64,000 bases of DNA from Protoeuglena noctilucae (taxonomy: Eukaryota), in the NCBI GenBank assembly GCA_958009085.1, contig OY253669.1:434001-498000 (forward strand), in the 5' to 3' direction. Under the pieces are notes generated by a model that searched no databases, was not told the origin of the DNA, and saw only the letters and a program-made list of their open reading frames with translations. Of the stretch, positions 19,158 to 64,000 are shown piece after piece. Made by a program: the position numbers and the translations under genes. Every line of letters begins with the position of its first letter. The stretch's first letter is position 1.

Positions 19158-19357
19158 NNNNNNNNNNNNNNNNNNNNNNNNNNNNNNNNNNNNNNNNNNN
19201 NNNNNNNNNNNNNNNNNNNNNNNNNNNNNNNNNNNNNNNNNNNNNNNNNNNNNNNNNNNNNNNNNNNNNNNNNNNNNNNNNNNNNNNNNNNNNNNNNNNN
19301 NNNNNNNNNNNNNNNNNNNNNNNNNNNNNNNNNNNNNNNNNNNNNNNNNNNNNNNNN
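19158..19357. other. Assembly gap (200 N)
   Basis: Run of n characters. Confidence 1.
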
Positions 19358-22539: not shown

Positions 22540-24782
22540 ATGAGCCGCGTGGACGTGGCTTCCCCCGCCTCGTGCTCGGCGCGGTGCGCGGGAGCGGTGG
22601 GGACGGTGGTTTCCAGGCGCCTGTGCTCCGTGCGCTCGCTCCTTCATAGCGGAGCGTCCCGGGACGTGGCCGCGGGCGGGGTCTCGCGCCGGCGCGCCTC
22701 GGCGCAGGTCCACGTCCTGAGCGTGGCCGAGTCGCCCCGCGCGCCCGCATCGCGGCCCGTGGAAGGCCTGGCCGCTGAAATCCGTTATGGCCAGCTGCCC
22801 TGGATGTCCCGGAGCGACGCCGTGCCGTCAGGTGAGGGACCGGATGTCGAGCCTGAATCTCGGCCCCCGGGAGCCGGCCAGGGGAGATTCCGGGGGGTAC
22901 GGCGCTCGGGAGTCCCCACGTTGATCGTAAACGCCCCCCGCGCGACGTCGCGACCCGCCTGACGGGCCGCGCGATCCAACCGCAGGGCAAGAGCTCCAGG
23001 CCGGGGGCGCCGACGCGCGGGCCTCGCTGGAGCGCACGTGGCGGATGCAGGAGGTGCAGACGCCCGGGGTGCGGCCGGGGAGCCGGAGATCGGAGAGGCT
23101 GCGCCCGCGGGAGGCCGCGAAGCCCCTCGTGGACAGGTAGGGATGCGTGCTTTCGTCCCGCCCCGCCGCGGCCGCGCCCGGAACCGCTCTCGCCATGCAG
23201 CGGATGGTTAGCCTTGAGCCGCGCAGCGGCACCGTCCCCGAACCTGCCGAGGCGCCCCGCACGGCGGGGGGGCCCATGTCTCGCACGCACGAGCGAGGCA
23301 ACGCGCCGCTCCTCGCCCCACGCCTCCGCAGGCCGCCCCGGCGCCAGGCCCGTTCGTCTCCTGCGAGCGCGCTGAGGTCCCTGGACCTTCAGGGCTACCT
23401 CCGAGAGACGGCCGTTCCCCTCCCGGAGGGCCTGGGCAACGCGGTGACGCCGGACATGGAGTACCTCATCGACCGGAGGCTTGTGCTGGAGGAGGGGCGG
23501 TTCGCGGCCAAGGCGCTGCGCGGGGGTTCGCGGTCGGAGGGGGCCCGGGCCCCGGCGAGCCCACGGGACTCGATGACCATGTTCATGGCGACGCTGGGGA
23601 CCAACCCTCTGCTGACGCGGGAGCACGAGGGGCGCTTGATGGCCATGGTCAGCCGATGGCACGAGCTCCAGCGGAAGGCGCGGGAGCTGCAGGCGGCGCT
23701 GGGGCGGGAGCCGACCCGGGCCGAGTGGGCGGCTGCGGCGGGGCTGGGGCCGCTCGAGCTGGCGCAGCAGGAATGGTGCGGGCAGGAGGCGCGGATGCTC
23801 ATGGCGCAGTACAACATGCGCCTGGTGCTCCACATCGCCAAGCGGTACGTGAACCGGGGCGTGGAGCTCCCGGACCTGGTGGCCGAGGGCATGGAGGGCC
23901 TCCTGCGCGCGGTGGACAAGTTCGACCACCGCCGGGGCGTCAAGTTCAGCACCTACTCCCACTGGTGGGTCCGCCAGGCCATCACGCGGGCCATCACGAA
24001 CCAGTCGCGCGTCGTGCGCCTGCCCGTCCATGTCTGGGACCTGGCCCACAAGATCCTACGCGTCGAGCAAGAGATCACGGTGAGGCGCTGCGCCCGGGCA
24101 GCGCGACCTGGTGGGCGCCGCACGCGCAAGCCGCGCCCTGACCCGCCGTGCTCTCCTGCTGCAGGCGGCCCGGGGCCTCGAGGGGCGCCCGTTGCCCGAG
24201 GAGGTGGCGGAGGCGATGGGCCTGCCCGTGGAGCGCGTGTCGCAAGTCCTCAAGCTGGCGCGCGTGCCCAAGTCGCTGGACGGCCCCGCCTACACGGAGA
24301 GCCGGATTAAGAAGACGGAGGACGACGTGAGCGCTCTCGTCGACACCATCGCCGTGTACCCGGAGGACCCGGCGGTGCAGGAGGCCAAGGATGAGATCAT
24401 CCGGCAGGACGTAAACGCCCTGGTGAGGCTCAGGGGGCTCTGCTCGTGTCCTGTCGGGGGGCGGTGGCAGCTGGCAGCGGCTCTGGTGGCAATTATGGCT
24501 TTTGCAGGGCCTGGTGGGAGGCGCATCTGACGTTGCGCCGCTCCCCTTCGTTTGCAGCTGTCGACGCTCCCGCCCCGGGAGCGCAACATCATCCGGATGC
24601 GCTATGGCCTCGCTCGGGAGGACGGCCGGGTCATGAACCTCAGCGACATTGGGGCCACGTACGGCCTGACGCGGGAGCGCATCCGGCAGATTGAGGAGAA
24701 GGCCCTCCGCAAGCTGAAGCGCCCCTCGAGCCGCCGCATCCTCCGCTCGCACCTCTACACGGTCGCAGACGCGTCCGACTAA
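22540..24782 (+). CDS. Nucleus-encoded plastid RNA polymerase sigma factor (sigma70 family)
   Basis: Long Ser/Arg/Ala-rich N-terminal extension; region 2 [12 protein letters not shown]...[18 protein letters not shown]...[14 protein letters not shown]; region 4 [15 protein letters not shown]...[18 protein letters not shown]; spliceosomal introns. Confidence 0.95.
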
Positions 24783-40363: not shown

Positions 40364-42548
40364 ATGGAGAGGCTCGGCGAGCTCAAGGAGGTGAGTTTGA
40401 AAAAATTCGGCAGCACCGTTAGCCCCTGCTCCCGCGCGCTGCACCCGCTCGTTCATGTTAGCGTCTGAATCGATGTTCGTCATCGGGTGGGTTGTTCGCC
40501 CCTTGCGCTCGCCGCGGCGCCCCATGGACGCTGCATCTCTGTGCGTCCCGGCCCCTTGCGCAGGCCGTGGTGCGGGTGCTGGAGCGCAAGGGCGTTCTGG
40601 CGCAGATTCGCGCGCAGCTGCGCCACGAGGTATTCAAGGCCATCGACGACGAGGATGCAGAGGACAGCAACTCCGGGTGACCCGCTGCATCGACGCGCTC
40701 GCTGCGCCCGGCGGCTCCCCGCGCGTGCGGACGTCTCACATTGTTCGACAGCTCTCCTCCTCCGCAGGGACGAGGGATGGTCGCTGCGGAGCGTGCTGCG
40801 CACCGAGGAGGGGGCGATGGCGATGGCGCTCGTCAAGGAGTTCCTGCAGTGGGCGGGCTTGCGGATGACGGCGAGCATTCTGGCGAGCGAGTCGGGAGAC
40901 GCGTCGGAGGGGTTCGACCGGGAGGACCTGGAGGGCCGGTGCGGCGTGGATGCGGGGCCGGGCCCGGTGCTGGCGGCGGTGGCGCAGCGGCTCTTGGCGG
41001 GTGGGGCGGGGCCCTCCGGCGCAGGCGGGGCGGTGCAGGCCTCCGCGGTGGCCCGCCCGGCGAGCGCCGCGACGCGCCCGGTGTCCGCGGTCGGCGCCGG
41101 CACCCTCGCCAGCGCTGGGGAGGCAGCAGAGGGCATGGCCGTTGTCAAGGAAAGGAGTTACGGACCAGAGGATACGTCAAAAGATGATTTCCAGCAGCCA
41201 TCCGCTGGGGCGTCTGAGGAGGATGTCTTGGAGCTGGACGAAGAGGGAGAGAGGGGTGCCGGGTCTGAGGGCGGCGGTCGCGGGGGCGATGGGGATGATG
41301 GGGATGGGGCTGGCTTGGAGGCGGAGGTGTCCAAGGGTGCGAGTGCGAGCGGAGTGGTCCCGGCCGGAGTCGAGGCGGCGGGGTCGGCGTCGCGGGAGGG
41401 GTCGGGCCTGGAGGAGCTGGCGTCTGAGGTGGGCAGGGGCGCTGGGGGCTGGGTGGCCTGTTGTGCGTTGCAGGAAGAGGGGAAGAGGCTGCAGGCTGCA
41501 GAATGTTAGACAGTGTTTTCGGAAAGGTGCCATTGGCTTCCAGCTTCACATATGGGCACCTGTCTGTGTGATGTGTAGGTGGAGGACGAGGTCGAGTACG
41601 ATTTTGATGATGAGGAGGAGGCGCCTGAGGGAGAGGCGCAGGAAGAGGGGCGCGCGGGGTCCGAGGGATCCGAGGTGCGAGCCGGGAGGGGCAGGGGCGG
41701 CGCACATGAGGCTTGGCGCTCATAACACAGACTCAACCACCAAGCCACTCCACGCCCACGTACACCCCGCCTCGCCCCCTCCCCGCAGGGCCCCCCTCCC
41801 CTCGAGGCCGCCTCTCATCGCAGCCACTCCGCCTCTGCCTCCGCCTCCGCCTCGCCGTCGGGCTCGTCCAAACACGACGAAACCCCCACCGCCCCCGCCC
41901 CCATCTCTCCCAGCGCCAACCCACTCCTCGACGGCACCCTCCCCCCGCCGGTCAAAGCCCTGCCCAGCCTGGGTGCTTTGGCAGAGGCACGCAAGCCCAG
42001 CACCCTCGCGCCCCTCCGCGGCAGGGGTCTGCCTGCCATCCCCGCGATGCGCGCGGGGCCAGGGACGGGCGCGGAGTCAGAGACTGGCGCCGATGGGACG
42101 CCGGCCTCGTCGCCGGGCGCGGGGGCGAGCGGCGACGTTGGCGCGGGGCTGTATGGGCAGCGTGACGGGAGGGTGGCAGAGCGGGGCGATGTGGGGGGCG
42201 GGTCAGGGCCTGAGGGTAGCGGGGAGATGTCTGGGGAAGTGTCTTACACCGGATTGGGTCGCTCGCTTCGTGGAGAGGGAATCACTGGTCAGGTGGAGGG
42301 AGAGGAGGACGCGGGGGTTGAGGTCGAGGAGGGTGGGCTCGTGTTGGAGTACAGGTGAGGATAGTGTGGTTGGGGGTTATGGTGGGGTCGTGGATGGGAG
42401 TTGCATATGTAAGCTACAATCTCCATGATGTGGGTTCGTTGATTGTTTGTGGATGACTCTGTGCTCGACTTGTCTTTGCAGTGATGTCGAGGGGACGCTC
42501 GAGGACATCCCTCACATGAGGTTCGTCGAGGCGGCGCGCACTCCGTGA
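40364..42548 (+). CDS. FOP/TONNEAU1-family centrosomal/basal-body LisH protein
   Basis: ELKE|AVVRVLERKGVLAQIRAQLRHEVFKAI (TOF motif), LisH ALVKEFLQWAGLRMTASIL, acidic low-complexity tail. Confidence 0.85.
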
Positions 42549-58747: not shown

Positions 58748-61700
58748 TCACCCCCCCATCCGGAAACTCGCCTCCCCTCGGTCCGGGCTGGTCCCGGCAC
58801 TCACCGCCCCCACCCGCCCGTCCCCATGCCCCACCGACGGACTCACTCCGGGGCTCAAGGCGTGCGCCCGCAGCGTCCCCCCCGCACTCTCCGCCCCCCC
58901 ACCACCACTTGGCGACAGTCCCGCCCCAGCCCCCTCCCCCGCACTCCTCGTGCCAGCTGCCACAGCGGCACCCTCGAACTCGTGACTCGCACCACCCGGC
59001 GACGGCCCTGCGTTGTGGGCCACCCCCGAACTGTGGGCTGCCCCCGTATTGTCGGCCGACGTCGGCCCAGCCTGTGCCACGGTCGCAGCCGCGTCCCTCG
59101 CGCGCGCCAGGTGCCGGGGTGTGAGTAAATCCGCGAGTCGGAAGACGGTCTTACGCACCGCAGCGGCGGCGGCGGACGCGGCGGAGGAGAGCGTGGTGGC
59201 CTGGGTGGCGTTGGTGGCGGTGCGGTGGGGGCGGTCGCGGGGGCTGCTGTCTACGGAGCCTGGGGGGAAGAGGAGAGAGAGGGAGAGGTGGGTGGGTGAT
59301 GCGTGGCGTGAGGTGCGACAGCTCCTGAGCTTGTGGGTGTCCCCAGGTGGTAAGGGTGTGTGTGGTCATTTGGTCAAGGCAGGCACCCGTGCACATACAT
59401 GACAGTGCATACACAGGACCATGCATCTCTGTGCTAAATGCATTTCCTCCACACGCATGTCCCCCTCACCGTCGTCTGCGTCCCTGGGCCCCTCCATCTT
59501 GGCCACCCCCCGCTCCCACACGTCCAGCACCCACCGCGTCATCCCCACGGCCGCACGGCTGCACGCGCCCACTGCGGGGTTGACACCGGGGAACGCGGTC
59601 ATACGCGGGTCATGGGTCAAGCGCGTCATACGACTGTCCCTCTGCTGATATGTCCCTCTACTGCTATGACGGAGACCTCGTTGCAGCATGCACTCCCAGC
59701 TGAGTGCCTCATGCAACTTTCCCCTCTCATCGCCCTCTCACCGATGTCCGGATCAAACATGGGGCTCTGCGCGATGTCCCTCATAGCATACATAGCAGTC
59801 ATACTTATCACACATATCATGATTAAAGTCAACCATTGTCATGCAATTCTCATAACCCCCTCACCGATGTCCGGGTCGAAGAAAGGGCTCTGCGCGATGT
59901 CCCGGAGCTTGCGCCACTTGGTGGGGTGCAGCGTGGGCCGCAGCTGCCGGCACTGCCGCATCTGCTCCAGGAAGTCGTCCACGCTGAGCATCGCGCGCAC
60001 GCACGGGGCCCAGTAGTCCTCCTCCATGCGCCGGTTGTAGAAGTCGTGCGTGCGGACGGGCTCTGGGGGGGAGGGGTGTGTGTGGGGGGGGTTGGACCGG
60101 GGGGGTTTGGGGGGGGCTGGGGGGTATGGGGCGTGGGGCATCGGCGTGGTGCGGAGGTAGCTGGTGCCAGCAGTCGGAGTTGGCTCCTGTCGGGAGCCCT
60201 ATTACACGTCAAAAATGTGAATGTCACCCATGTGACACGAAGTGCTGTGGTACCGTCAATATACCCCACTCACCGATGCCCAGCAGTACGACCACGGCGG
60301 ACATGACCAGTTGTGACAGACACGAGACAGTAACACTAGTACAGCCCCACTCACCGATTCCCAATAAAATGGCCACGGCCGACATGACCAGTTGTGACAT
60401 ATACATGAGCTATTACTGCTACTAGTACTATTGACACCATGACCATACTCACCGATGCCTAGTAAAATGGCCACGGCCGACATGACCAGCCGCACGGCCT
60501 TGTCGGGGGAGCGGAGGCCGCGGAGCTCCACCACGTCGTTGCGGGAGACGAACTGCGAATGGAGGGAGGTGAGACGCAATCAGTGTACATCATATACATC
60601 ATAGTTATGAGTTATGGATACCTATGATGACCAGTAGGTGTCCCAGGTACAGTGCCATACATACATCGCTCGATGCAACTACGCATCGCATCTGACCTCT
60701 TCTATACAAATACATCACGAGTACATCCTAATCAAGTGCTGTCAACAATCATACGTTCATCTCATCAGCACCCGTTCCCCTCGCCCCTCGCCTCGATGTG
60801 GTGGACTAGTGGTGTTGACAAGCGTGCATACGCATCATCGCATCAGCACCCCTCATACATCCCCTCGCCTCGATGTGGTGGACCTTCTTGGAGATGCTCC
60901 TCCCATCGACATGGGGCGTGACCATCTTGAGCGCCTTGCTGCTGGTCGTGCGCATGAAGTGGGGCCGCAGGTCGCCCACGATGGCCGGGCTGCGGTACCG
61001 GGAGCTCCGCATGCTGGTGACGCCGCTCTGCCGGCTCTCCACGCTCACCACCGACTGCACATCGCCGTCGCTGCTCAGCGTGCGCGCCTGGCTCATGCGG
61101 CGGCGGCTCGACTGCGATGGGGGAGGGGGGGGGGAGGGGGTTGGTGGGTGAGTGAGTGAGTGAGTGCCATGGCTCATGCGGCGGCGGCTCGACGGGGGGG
61201 GAAGGGGGGGCGGGTGGGTGGGAGTGATGGGGGGTTGCTAGGTGAGTGGGTGGTTGTGGTGGGGGTGCAAGCAGTGACGCGAGCGGTGAGGTGCCGATGC
61301 CAATGCTACTGCCAAAGCCGGTGCTCATGCTCATACTCATGCACATATACCAATGCCAATGTTCATCCCCCCCCATCTCCCAGGTCACCTGCGTGGAGAG
61401 CATGAAGTGTCGGCTGCCGTTCTCCACCGAGTTGCGGCCGGGGGACGAGGCGGCGTCCCTGGGGGCAGGGTGGTGGGGGGCGTGAGGTGCGTGGGAGATG
61501 GTGGTTTTGTGCAAGCGGGCATGTTTGTGAGGGGGAAAGGCCAAGTTCACCTCCTCCCGGCAGATGGAGAGCCTTGCATCTGTCTACAATATCACGACCC
61601 ACCCATCTTGCACTGTATATTCCCCCCCCACCCCAACAATCCCCCCCACCACCCCCCCTTCCCTCGCCTGGCCAGTGACCCCTGCCGCGACCTCAGTGGC

Positions 61701-64000
61701 CCCCTCCCCCTCCTCCCCACCGCACTGCCCGCGTCCGAGTCCGAGTCGTCCAGCGTGCGGGTGCGGAAGGAGGCAGTCGGGAGCATGTACCTGTGGGGAG
61801 GTGGGGAGAGATGGAGGGCGAGGGTAGCATAGCAGCAGGATTGGGCACACGCTGCCAGGGGTGGGAGCGTGCAGTTGAGCAGGGCTGTCGGTGCCTAGTG
61901 CCTACTATTCGCATCTTGCCCGCAACAGCGTCCCAAGCATGCCCCCCTTGCTCGCCTGGGAATGGTCCCATCGCCCCGCGAGTCAATCGATGACATGCGC
62001 GATATCTGAGACACGGACCCCGGTCCGGGGGAGTCGTTGTCATCCGCTGGAGTGGCCTTGAAGGAAGAGGACTTGGTGGGGCGCATGTACCTGGGGGGGG
62101 GGGTGAGGGTGAGGGGGGTGCAAGGCATGGCATTACAGCACGGCATTACAGCACGTGCGAGCATGCAAACAGAGGAGTGGGGTGCCAAAGCCAGAGCAGG
62201 GCGTGGCGGATTGAGGCATACACCCGCTCGCCCTCTCTCGCAATCAATAACAAGAGCGACAGTCGCAACAATCACCCATCCCCATCCCCTCGTCTCTCAC
62301 CCCGGCGTGGGCCCCGAACTGGCCTCCCCCCTCAGGTGCGAGGGGTTGTGCACGCGAGCCTCAGAGATCGCCGTCAGTCCCCCCAGGGTGGGCGCGCTGG
62401 GGCCCGCGGCGGATGCGGCGTCGTAGACCCTCTTGGCCCACACGGCGATGCCCGCAGCGGCCAGGGACACCGTGCGCAGGCTCTGGGGGGGGGGGGTTAC
62501 GGGGTGTGGAATGCGCTGAGGTGCATGAGAAACCGTACGCAGGCTCTGTGTGTGGGGGGGGGGGGGGGGGGGGAGGAGTTAGAGGGAGGGAGAGGTGGGA
62601 TGGTGGGGTGTTGACAGCGCTGAGGTGCATGAGACACCGTGCGCAGGCTCTGAGGTGAGGGGAGAGGGGTTTAAGGGGGGTAGAGATGGGATGGTGGTGC
62701 TTTGAAGGTGGTGTTGACTGCGCTGATGCTCACTAGACACCCAAGTCACCCTATACATGCATGGCACTCCCCCCGCATCGCCATCACCCTCATGCACTCC
62801 TACATACACTCCAACCACCCCAAACTCTCCCTCCCCCGCCCAAACCACCCACCTCCGGCTCCAGCGCCCCCCTCTCCAGCAGCACCCCCACCCTGTGCAG
62901 CGCCTCGGGTGCAATGCTGAGCTTGTCCGCGTCGTTGTGCAGGATACACCGATCGGCCACGTCCTGTAGCCTATTCAAGAACCGATTGACGTCGTGCATC
63001 ATCGATAGAGCCGTCTTCCACCAATCGGGGGCGTGGGTCTTGCCCTTGGGAGTGGCGTTGCGTACGGGAACCATCACGGGGGACTGCCCCAGCAGCAAGC
63101 TCACGGCCTCAAACACCGGGATGACGGCGGGGGAGGGGGTGCGGAGGGCGCGCAGCATGGATATTTCTGGCTTGGAGATGCCCAGCAAGGCGATGTCAAT
63201 CATGCCGGTGTCGTCGGCCTCGGGGGCGGGGGCGGCCGGGGCGGACTCGGCGGCGGGGCGGGCGCGGGCGGGGGTGTCGGAAGCGCGCCTGGGGGGGGAG
63301 GGGGTTGGGGGGTGGATGTGGATGGAGAGGGAGAGGGATGGGGAGGAGGGTGGGGTGGGGTGGGTTTGGAGGGAGGGGGTGTGTGAGTGGATAATAAGGC
63401 GACGGAAGTGGGGGTGTTTGAGGCGCTCCTGGGGGGGGGGGGTTGAGAGGGGTGGGGTGGAGTGGGGGGGTGAGGTGGATGGGTGGCTAACGTGTGGGTC
63501 ACGAGGTGCATGTTGTACAGGGGCAGTTGCGTAGGGATCGACGTCCCGCACCGCACTGCGTTGTGTAAAGGCCGCAGCGAGCACAGGAGGGGTCACCCAA
63601 GCAACCATGCACACGACCACGCCTCGCTCTGTGTATGGCATGCCTAGGCAGGTAGCATGTATGTAGCATGCGTGTCCCTCACTTGAGTTTCTCGATGAGG
63701 GCGGGCTGCGTGGCCTGGTTGAGGCTCCAGATGCCGATGAGGACGGCGTGGAGCTTCTGGATTTCCGGGCCGGCCGTGCGCACCGCTGGAGGGGGGGGGG
63801 GTTGGAGGGCGTATGAGTGAGTGGGCATGTGGTGATGCATACTGCGACAAACGGTGGCTGGCATGACATGGTATAACGTGTGTAATGGAGAAAGACACGA
63901 GAGCCGCAGCGACGGGTGGTGCGGCACCGTTGACGTCGTCACCCCCACGCACGGCTGCACTCCTGCTGCCACCCCACCCCCACCCATACCACCCCCTCAC
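58748..64000 (-). CDS. Large multi-exon protein (5' end outside window) with two dynein stalk-head (MTBD)-like modules and low-complexity linkers
   Basis: Module 1: ISKPEISMLRALRTPSPAVIPVFEAVSLLLG...DWWKTALSMMHDVNRFLNRL...SLRTVSLAAAGIAVWAKRVY. Module 2: VSRNDVVELRGLRSPDKAVRLVMSAVAILLG...DYWAPCVRAMLSVDDFLEQM...PFFDPD...CSRAAVGMTRWV. Confidence 0.65.
59738..62652. repeat. Cluster of intronic copies of adjacent exon/splice-junction segments
   Basis: 59738-59780 vs 59861-59903; 60268-60310 and 60349-60391 vs 60447-60489; 60784-60806 vs 60861-60883; 61170-61193 vs 61089-61112; 62532-62548 and 62633-62652 vs 62466-62485. Confidence 0.9.

Follow-up and report, generated by a model that had tools for sequence, protein, structure and literature searches.

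The DNA analysed here, referred to as the window, comprises 64,000 nucleotides of Protoeuglena noctilucae (assembly GCA_958009085.1, contig OY253669.1, positions 434,001 to 498,000 of the forward strand) with a G+C content of ~65% throughout. Its region 58748-64000 holds an intron-rich eukaryotic gene which lies on the minus strand and runs off the window's 64000 end. An original prediction, made from the DNA letters alone, had described the product as a motor-less protein with two modules resembling the microtubule-binding domain (MTBD) of dynein heavy chains. Judged from sequence and profile comparisons, these modules, numbered 5 and 6 by their place in the whole protein, are true homologues of the dynein MTBD, and they occur without an AAA+ ring and without a coiled-coil stalk. 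The protein probably represents a type of microtubule-associated protein (MAP) that has not been described before. What is new is a known domain in a motor-less, multi-copy architecture. Both modules were located on the minus strand where they had been predicted:

62414..63197, minus strand: module 5 (module 1 of the original prediction), model residues 65-202, with intron 62483-62852 inside
59507..60880, minus strand: module 6 (module 2 of the original prediction), model residues 427-551, to which exon G contributes its end and exons H, I and J the rest

The order of motifs described for the dynein stalk head, acidic-x-x-LR...P..V...AV..LLG followed by D(W/Y)W...FL..L and S.AA.G...W, was found in both modules. 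The literal PxFDP motif, which had been expected in each of them, is present only in module 6 (SPFFDP); module 5 reads LEPE at this place. A phmmer search of the PDB with the module-5 exon alone (123 aa) returned 18 sequences at E<=10, 14 of which were dynein heavy chains matched at the stalk tip (best dynein E=6.4e-5), and the four non-dyneins all had E-values of at least 0.45. The middle exon of module 6 (exon I, 65 aa) returned eight sequences. The top two were dynein, with the Chlamydomonas DHC9 MTBD (2rr7) as the best match at the corresponding position (E=0.0015), and the six non-dyneins had E-values of at least 0.44. Moreover, an alignment of modules 5 and 6 from three species and one related domain, used as profile A1, matched 80 PDB sequences at E<=1. 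The best 60 of these 80 were all dynein, namely dynein heavy chains, MTBD constructs or ~4,000-residue chains from axoneme structures that aligned at their stalk tip. The E-values were 1.3e-18 for 2rr7 (DHC9), 1.9e-14 for DHC2, 5.8e-14 for DNAH1 and 1.2e-10 for DNAH7, and cytoplasmic dynein reached only ~2.5e-5 in a match limited to helices H1-H2. The modules appear to derive from an axonemal inner-arm dynein with a flap and not from cytoplasmic dynein.

A local hidden Markov model (HMM) of the modules gave the true dynein fragment P0005 57.3 bits, and the look-alikes of the module in the ESM Atlas were dynein stalk fragments only. The basic pair of H1 (E-L/V-K/R-x-x-K/R-x-P) and the D-[YW]-W at the start of helix H3 were retained in alignments to DNAH1 and DHC9, and these positions, along with S.AA.G...W in H6, are common to the modules and true dyneins. 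The Pfam 'MT' profile (PF12777), a check proposed with the original prediction, gave a divided result on the related proteins described below: P0003 (module 6) scored 27.5 bits, above the cut-off of 24, and P0002 stayed just below it with 23.5 bits. Of the 344 profile positions the match takes in 99-207 (99-206 in P0003), covering the MTBD alone and none of the coiled-coil arms.

The predicted fold agrees with the assignment. The AlphaFold2 models represent the orthologous modules, with the window exons as alignment rows, and not the window's own joined sequence. Module 6 of P0016 (pLDDT 87.2, pTM 0.83) was modelled as two helices, a beta hairpin and a further helical bundle. In Foldseek against the PDB its best match was DNAH1 (8i3j, TM-score 0.82, root mean square deviation 1.9 over 125 columns), the other top matches being 2rr7 (DHC9) and microtubule-bound DNAH7 (6rza, TM-score 0.77); the matches listed were all dynein down to rank 44, and the first non-dynein had a probability of 0.11. 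Module 5 of P0002 (pLDDT 90.9, pTM 0.86) had the same top three with TM-scores of 0.70 (8i3j), 0.67 (6rza) and 0.59, and shows an extra insertion between H4 and H5. Both modules are predicted to fold as a compact H1-H6 bundle that is superposable on solved MTBDs; a fold unlike that of a dynein MTBD, named beforehand as evidence against the original prediction, was not obtained for the orthologous modules. The insertion between H2 and H3 comprises ~16 residues in module 6 and ~20 in module 5 and is predicted as a beta hairpin, with strands E44-48/E53-57 and E46-49/E62-65, respectively. According to Lacey et al. 2019 (PMC6629372), an H2-H3 flap of 18/19 residues is present in the inner-arm dyneins a-e and the outer-arm gamma dynein of Chlamydomonas as well as in DNAH7, where it contacts the adjacent protofilament; the same text describes the MTBD as permanently primed, with H1 alone moving. 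In the models, the modules of the window family carry the flap that is typical of this axonemal MTBD subtype.

The module-5 exon, run by HMMER against 1.84 billion representative proteins, identified five of them at E<=0.001, which were the window's own frame, P0002 (1805 aa, matched in four stretches), P0003 (570 aa), P0004 (407 aa) and the dynein fragment P0005. The cluster of P0003 includes the complete form P0016 (1427 aa), of which P0003 is a C-terminal fragment. The spliced window protein is colinear with residues 740-1424 of P0016 (36% identity over 783 columns, E=9e-128) and with residues 1026-1794 of P0002 (E=3e-101). Since it aligns to the C-terminal halves of both orthologues, ~740-1030 residues are expected to be encoded upstream of the window. 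Besides the window protein, the module was found in three clusters, namely those of the two orthologues and of a fusion with a TLC domain. A word-indexed search with the module-5 exon yielded the window's own frame only among 829 candidates, and with profile A1 it yielded P0002, P0003, P0001 and P0004 only among 8000 scored candidates; given the limits of the word index, the small size of the family is weakly shown by these searches. A metagenome scan with P0016 gave 39 pattern stretches and two confirmed loci, both from the P0016 species and none from the species of the window.

The number of modules in the whole protein is probably higher than first proposed. The window contains the last two modules and the tail of module 4. 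In both P0016 and P0002, the HMM of modules 5 and 6 found six matches in the same order, and profile-profile comparison with hhalign gave modules 1 and 3 probabilities of 95.1% and 96.6%. On these comparisons the whole protein probably comprises six modules of the MTBD type, four of them well supported and two degenerate.

A dynein heavy chain carries a tail, a linker and a ring of six AAA+ domains, so that more than 3,000 residues lie N-terminal of its MTBD, and a long stalk of antiparallel coiled coil (CC1/CC2) carries the MTBD at its tip. The claim that the protein is motor-less was borne out by the orthologues, which are complete with 1427 and 1805 aa. Pfam at E<=1 matched MT only and no AAA family in P0002 and P0003, a result that covers the complete P0002 and, of P0016, the C-terminal fragment P0003. 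For P0016, the frame is uninterrupted on the 6824-base contig L001 and bounded at no more than 1499 residues. Ser/Pro/Arg-rich linkers instead of coiled-coil stalks had likewise been predicted, and the 60 residues flanking each module indeed contain 3-8 prolines. The longest flank runs free of Pro and Gly span 11-36 residues, compared with 69 in CC2 of the true dynein fragment. The modules are severed right at the base of the stalk.

Some features of the relatives were noted in addition. On L001 the P0016 gene (1173-5669) is uninterrupted over 4.3 kb with a coding G+C content of 74.6%, and the window orthologue has at least 10 introns; L001 is either a transcript or a contig of an intron-poor relative. 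P0004 combines one module-5-like MTBD (59.4 bits with the module HMM) in frame with a TLC (TRAM-LAG1-CLN8) domain (PF03798, E=2.1e-43), has six near-identical members on several contigs and could be a membrane protein tethered to microtubules. The N-terminus of P0002 consists of Met-Gly followed by a Ser/Lys-rich stretch, which we take to resemble a myristoylation and polybasic membrane signal, and P0016 begins with Met-Ile-Arg-Arg.

In the window, 11 exons joined give a single open frame of 733 codons with the stop at 58748-58750. The exon borders were set by eye at AG/GT or AG/GC sites. The exons, all on the minus strand, and the contig joints in RNA that bear on them are as follows:

63683..63785, minus strand: exon A (hand model), last helix of the degenerate module 4, aligning with P0016 ~740-760; RNA joint 63287/63682 (cut +1) and a loose end at 63786
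62853..63288, minus strand: exon B, Pro/Ala-rich linker, then the H1-H5 part of module 5 including the flap; RNA joints on either side
62301..62482, minus strand: exon C, H6 of module 5 (S.AA.G...W) and start of the linker; RNA joints 62482/62853 and 62088/62299 (cut +2)
61956-62090, minus strand: exon D, basic linker; RNA joints C/D and D/E
61668-61790, minus strand: exon E, basic linker; E/F junction from loose ends at 61462
61389-61458, minus strand: exon F, basic linker; RNA joint G/F
60869-61111, minus strand: exon G, basic linker and start of module 6; RNA joints G/F and H/G
60453..60552, minus strand: exon H, H1-H2 of module 6; RNA joints 60552/60869 and 60062/60453
59865..60062, minus strand: exon I, flap and H3-H5 of module 6 with SPFFDPDI at the end; RNA joints
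59470..59571, minus strand: exon J, H6 of module 6; RNA joints 59571/59865 and 59258/59469 (cut +1)
58748..59259, minus strand: exon K, C-terminal tail of low complexity, in which one short helix-like stretch is conserved, and the stop; RNA over 58982-59258

The gene is expressed and spliced in frame, and we take it for a nuclear gene of a photosynthetic eukaryote from the sea. The RNA consisted of contigs of four marine-labelled metatranscriptomic runs, which belong to one study and at most three samples. The sampled words of the region were present in these runs at shares of 0.11-0.28, fitting exons only, and next to none of them occurred in runs X9-X12. Contigs of runs X1-X3 aligned to the window with 0 differing letters, and run X4 contributed mainly unspliced or repeat-derived pieces. 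Nine of the ten introns were seen as RNA contig joints at the borders of the model, with an ambiguity of 1-2 bases. For the tenth, between exons E and F, loose ends of 8 and 14 letters at 61462, which read into the end of exon E, are the sole support. GC instead of GT donors follow exons D, E and G (61955-61950, 61667-61662 and 60868-60863 on the minus strand, gcgag), so that three of the ten introns are of the GC-AG type; the one after exon G was seen directly in RNA as a CT..GC joint (60552/60869). The two modules never occurred within one RNA contig, and the transcript is a chain of overlapping contigs. Uncovered stretches, such as 58781-58961 and all introns, were excluded as evidence.

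The exon preceding exon A is located beyond position 64000, in agreement with the original prediction that the N-terminus lies outside the window. The RNA runs on for 133 letters past 63786 as a loose end without a match in the window, which implies that the transcript extends into a further exon beyond 64000; at 64000 the minus strand opens with a donor-like gtgagg.

In four introns the end of the adjoining exon is repeated, together with its splice site, as one or two tandem pseudo-copies (65-86% identical). These lie at 60264-60502 (exon H donor, two extra copies), 59725-59903 (exon I donor), 61089-61221 (exon G acceptor) and 62485-62669 (exon C acceptor). The RNA contigs use the outermost true sites only, and the inner pseudo-copies are removed with the intron. 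A (GTGA)n microsatellite at 61134-61166 in the F/G intron was covered by deep short contigs of run X4 (depth ~610), which represent cross-matching of the repeat and not expression.

The modules are better conserved than the linker between them. Identities of the window protein to P0016 and P0002 amount to 82/125 and 82/125 for module 6, to 58/138 and 67/138 for module 5, and to 67/208 and 72/220 for the inter-module linker. Linkers and flanks are rich in Ser, Pro, Gly and Arg and do not form coiled coil. The inter-module linker (model residues 203-426, the end of exon C and exons D-G) has a net charge of +15 and an isoelectric point of 11.4. It contains one RRxS site and four copies of the motif [YF]M[RL]xTxS at model residues 241, 286, 344 and 401 (exons D, E, F/G and G). 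Four copies are present at matching places in P0016, and P0002 has two in a looser form.

With moderate confidence, somewhat above an even chance, we infer that the protein is a multivalent non-motor MAP built from tandem stalk-less dynein MTBDs, which could bundle or stabilise microtubules and occupy dynein sites. The role of microtubule cross-linker or dynein competitor suggested in the original prediction is plausible. Each module would dock at the tubulin intradimer site as the tip of dynein does, with the flap reaching the neighbouring protofilament. As there is no stalk, the affinity switch by which dynein uses the registry of its stalk cannot operate, and binding per module would be constitutive but weak. 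Several modules on flexible basic tethers would provide avidity, and the multivalent protein would in this way bundle or stabilise microtubules and incidentally occupy the binding sites of dynein. The Arg/Ser-rich linkers with their RRxS site and four [YF]M[RL]xTxS motifs would be the part likely to be regulated by phosphorylation.

Several points weigh against this interpretation. In vitro, dynein MTBDs that are isolated and lack a fixed stalk registry are weak binders of microtubules, and each module alone is only mildly basic (net charge +2). The N-terminal half of the window gene is outside the window, and the case for the missing motor rests on the orthologues. The modelled orthologous modules are 66% (module 6) and 49% (module 5) identical to those of the window, and the comparison of the binding side covers the residues seen in the DNAH1 and DHC9 alignments. 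Modules 2 and 4 were weak in hhalign with 13.5% (H1-H2 only) and 32.9% (100 columns in register). Pfam on seven unspliced minus-strand frames of the gene region gave no MT match at E<=1, to which we attach little weight because introns split the modules.

Part of these observations would also fit a dynein-derived fold that no longer binds microtubules and has been re-used for protein-protein or other interactions in a large scaffold. Modules 2 and 4 of the orthologues are far diverged, module 5 has its H4-H5 insertion and a replaced PxFDP-type motif, the low charge of the single modules fits as well, and the fusion to the TLC membrane domain in P0004 demonstrates that a module-5-like domain is used in other contexts. 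However, the best-conserved positions are those common with real dynein MTBDs, that is the H1 basic pair, D-[YW]-W and S.AA.G...W. The flap, which contacts the microtubule in DNAH7 (PMC6629372), persists in each module as a hairpin in the predicted structure, and the two modules are connected by a strongly basic linker, as is common among lattice binders. We regard the loss of microtubule binding as unlikely, although it is the most serious competitor of a multivalent MAP. The same flap, together with a match to cytoplasmic dynein that is confined to H1-H2 (~2.5e-5) and with nearest solved relatives that are all single-headed inner-arm dyneins (DHC9, DHC2, DNAH1 and DNAH7), could also indicate a regulator of the axoneme or flagellar apparatus. 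Such a protein would act as a brake, spacer or competitor on those B-tubule protofilaments to which flap-bearing inner-arm dyneins bind. Where a domain is used today does not follow from its ancestry, though, and we consider this more specific role improbable.

A conventional or decayed dynein heavy chain, a pseudogene or an assembly chimera, the other outcome named as contrary to the original prediction, had to be considered since the N-terminal part of the gene is outside the window and the duplicated junction pieces in the introns reveal local instability. Nevertheless, transcripts were spliced in frame with 0 differing letters, the frame is open over 11 exons, and the product is colinear with complete orthologues of 1427 and 1805 aa, of which P0002 was without AAA+ in Pfam. 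In addition, conservation is much higher in the modules than in the linkers, and two stalk-less MTBDs in one chain cannot arise by simple decay of a single dynein gene. This explanation is hardly credible. The preferred reading, a multivalent MAP of tandem MTBDs, can be extended in a more tentative manner, which we rate slightly below an even chance: the family would consist of autonomous, stalk-independent MTBDs and form a lineage-restricted group of MAPs with up to six flap-bearing copies, which use dynein's site on the lattice for bundling or for sensing curvature.

The neighbourhood of the gene was inspected by a Pfam run on 38 of the 68 window frames of at least 230 aa, eight of which had matches (subtilase, mitochondrial carrier, Sigma70_r2, ARS2, a sub-threshold FOP-dimer, cactin, adaptin N and RmlD/epimerase). 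Except possibly for the weak FOP match, no link to dynein or cilia was found among these 38 frames. The FOP N-terminal dimerisation domain, which belongs to a centrosomal family, was matched at 40469-41509 on the plus strand with 23.7 bits, below the cut-off of 29.4. The frame at 23141-24310 on the plus strand matched Sigma-70 region 2 (E=3.1e-20) and presumably belongs to a nuclear gene that encodes a sigma factor of the plastid type, which marks the organism as photosynthetic. Positions 19158-19357 consist of 200 N and represent a scaffold gap.

To our knowledge, the dynein MTBD has so far been treated as the end part of the stalk only, with its affinity set by the stalk registry, and we know of no MAP that uses it. 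A conserved, expressed and stalk-less multi-MTBD protein shows that the domain can be selected for alone, and it offers a natural test of how an MTBD behaves once allosteric control is lost. It also suggests a new family of MAPs. Their flap modules might sense or alter the curvature of protofilaments, as has been reported for DNAH7. Moreover, the family provides a naturally stalk-free set of MTBDs for binding and structural work. In the full-text literature searched, which left ~1.7 million PMC articles and the subscription journals uncovered, no natural non-dynein protein with a dynein MTBD was described. The MTBD-only or motor-less forms of dynein found there belonged to engineered or dynactin contexts only, and the term 'MTBD-like' together with dynein led to TTLL11 only.

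Among non-motor MAPs, tau/MAP2/MAP4, tandem doublecortin proteins and XMAP215 are multivalent and place arrays of small binding units on flexible basic linkers. The window family would share with tau/MAP2/MAP4 repeats, tandem doublecortin and the TOG arrays of XMAP215 the design of repeated units, avidity and basic Ser-rich linkers that are probably regulated by phosphorylation, but their binding unit is unrelated to the MTBD in sequence and fold. The closest likeness is to the dynein MTBD itself as known from DHC9 (2RR7), DNAH7 (6RZA), DNAH1 (8I3J) and the central part of PF12777. Here the six-helix bundle, the order of helices and the motifs of H1, H2, H3 and H6 are the same, as is the insertion of 16-20 residues between H2 and H3, which in the window family is predicted to be a beta hairpin. 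In contrast to dynein heavy chains, the window family lacks CC1/CC2, the AAA+ ring, the linker and the tail, and carries several copies of the domain on disordered linkers. A further departure from the motor has been reported for DNAHX, described as a 'non-motile dynein heavy chain subfamily' (bioRxiv 10.1101/2025.01.18.633724 / PMC11785096). DNAHX is likewise dynein-derived and said not to be a motor. By its title, however, it is still a dynein heavy chain, whereas the window protein keeps the MTBD only, and in multiple copies.

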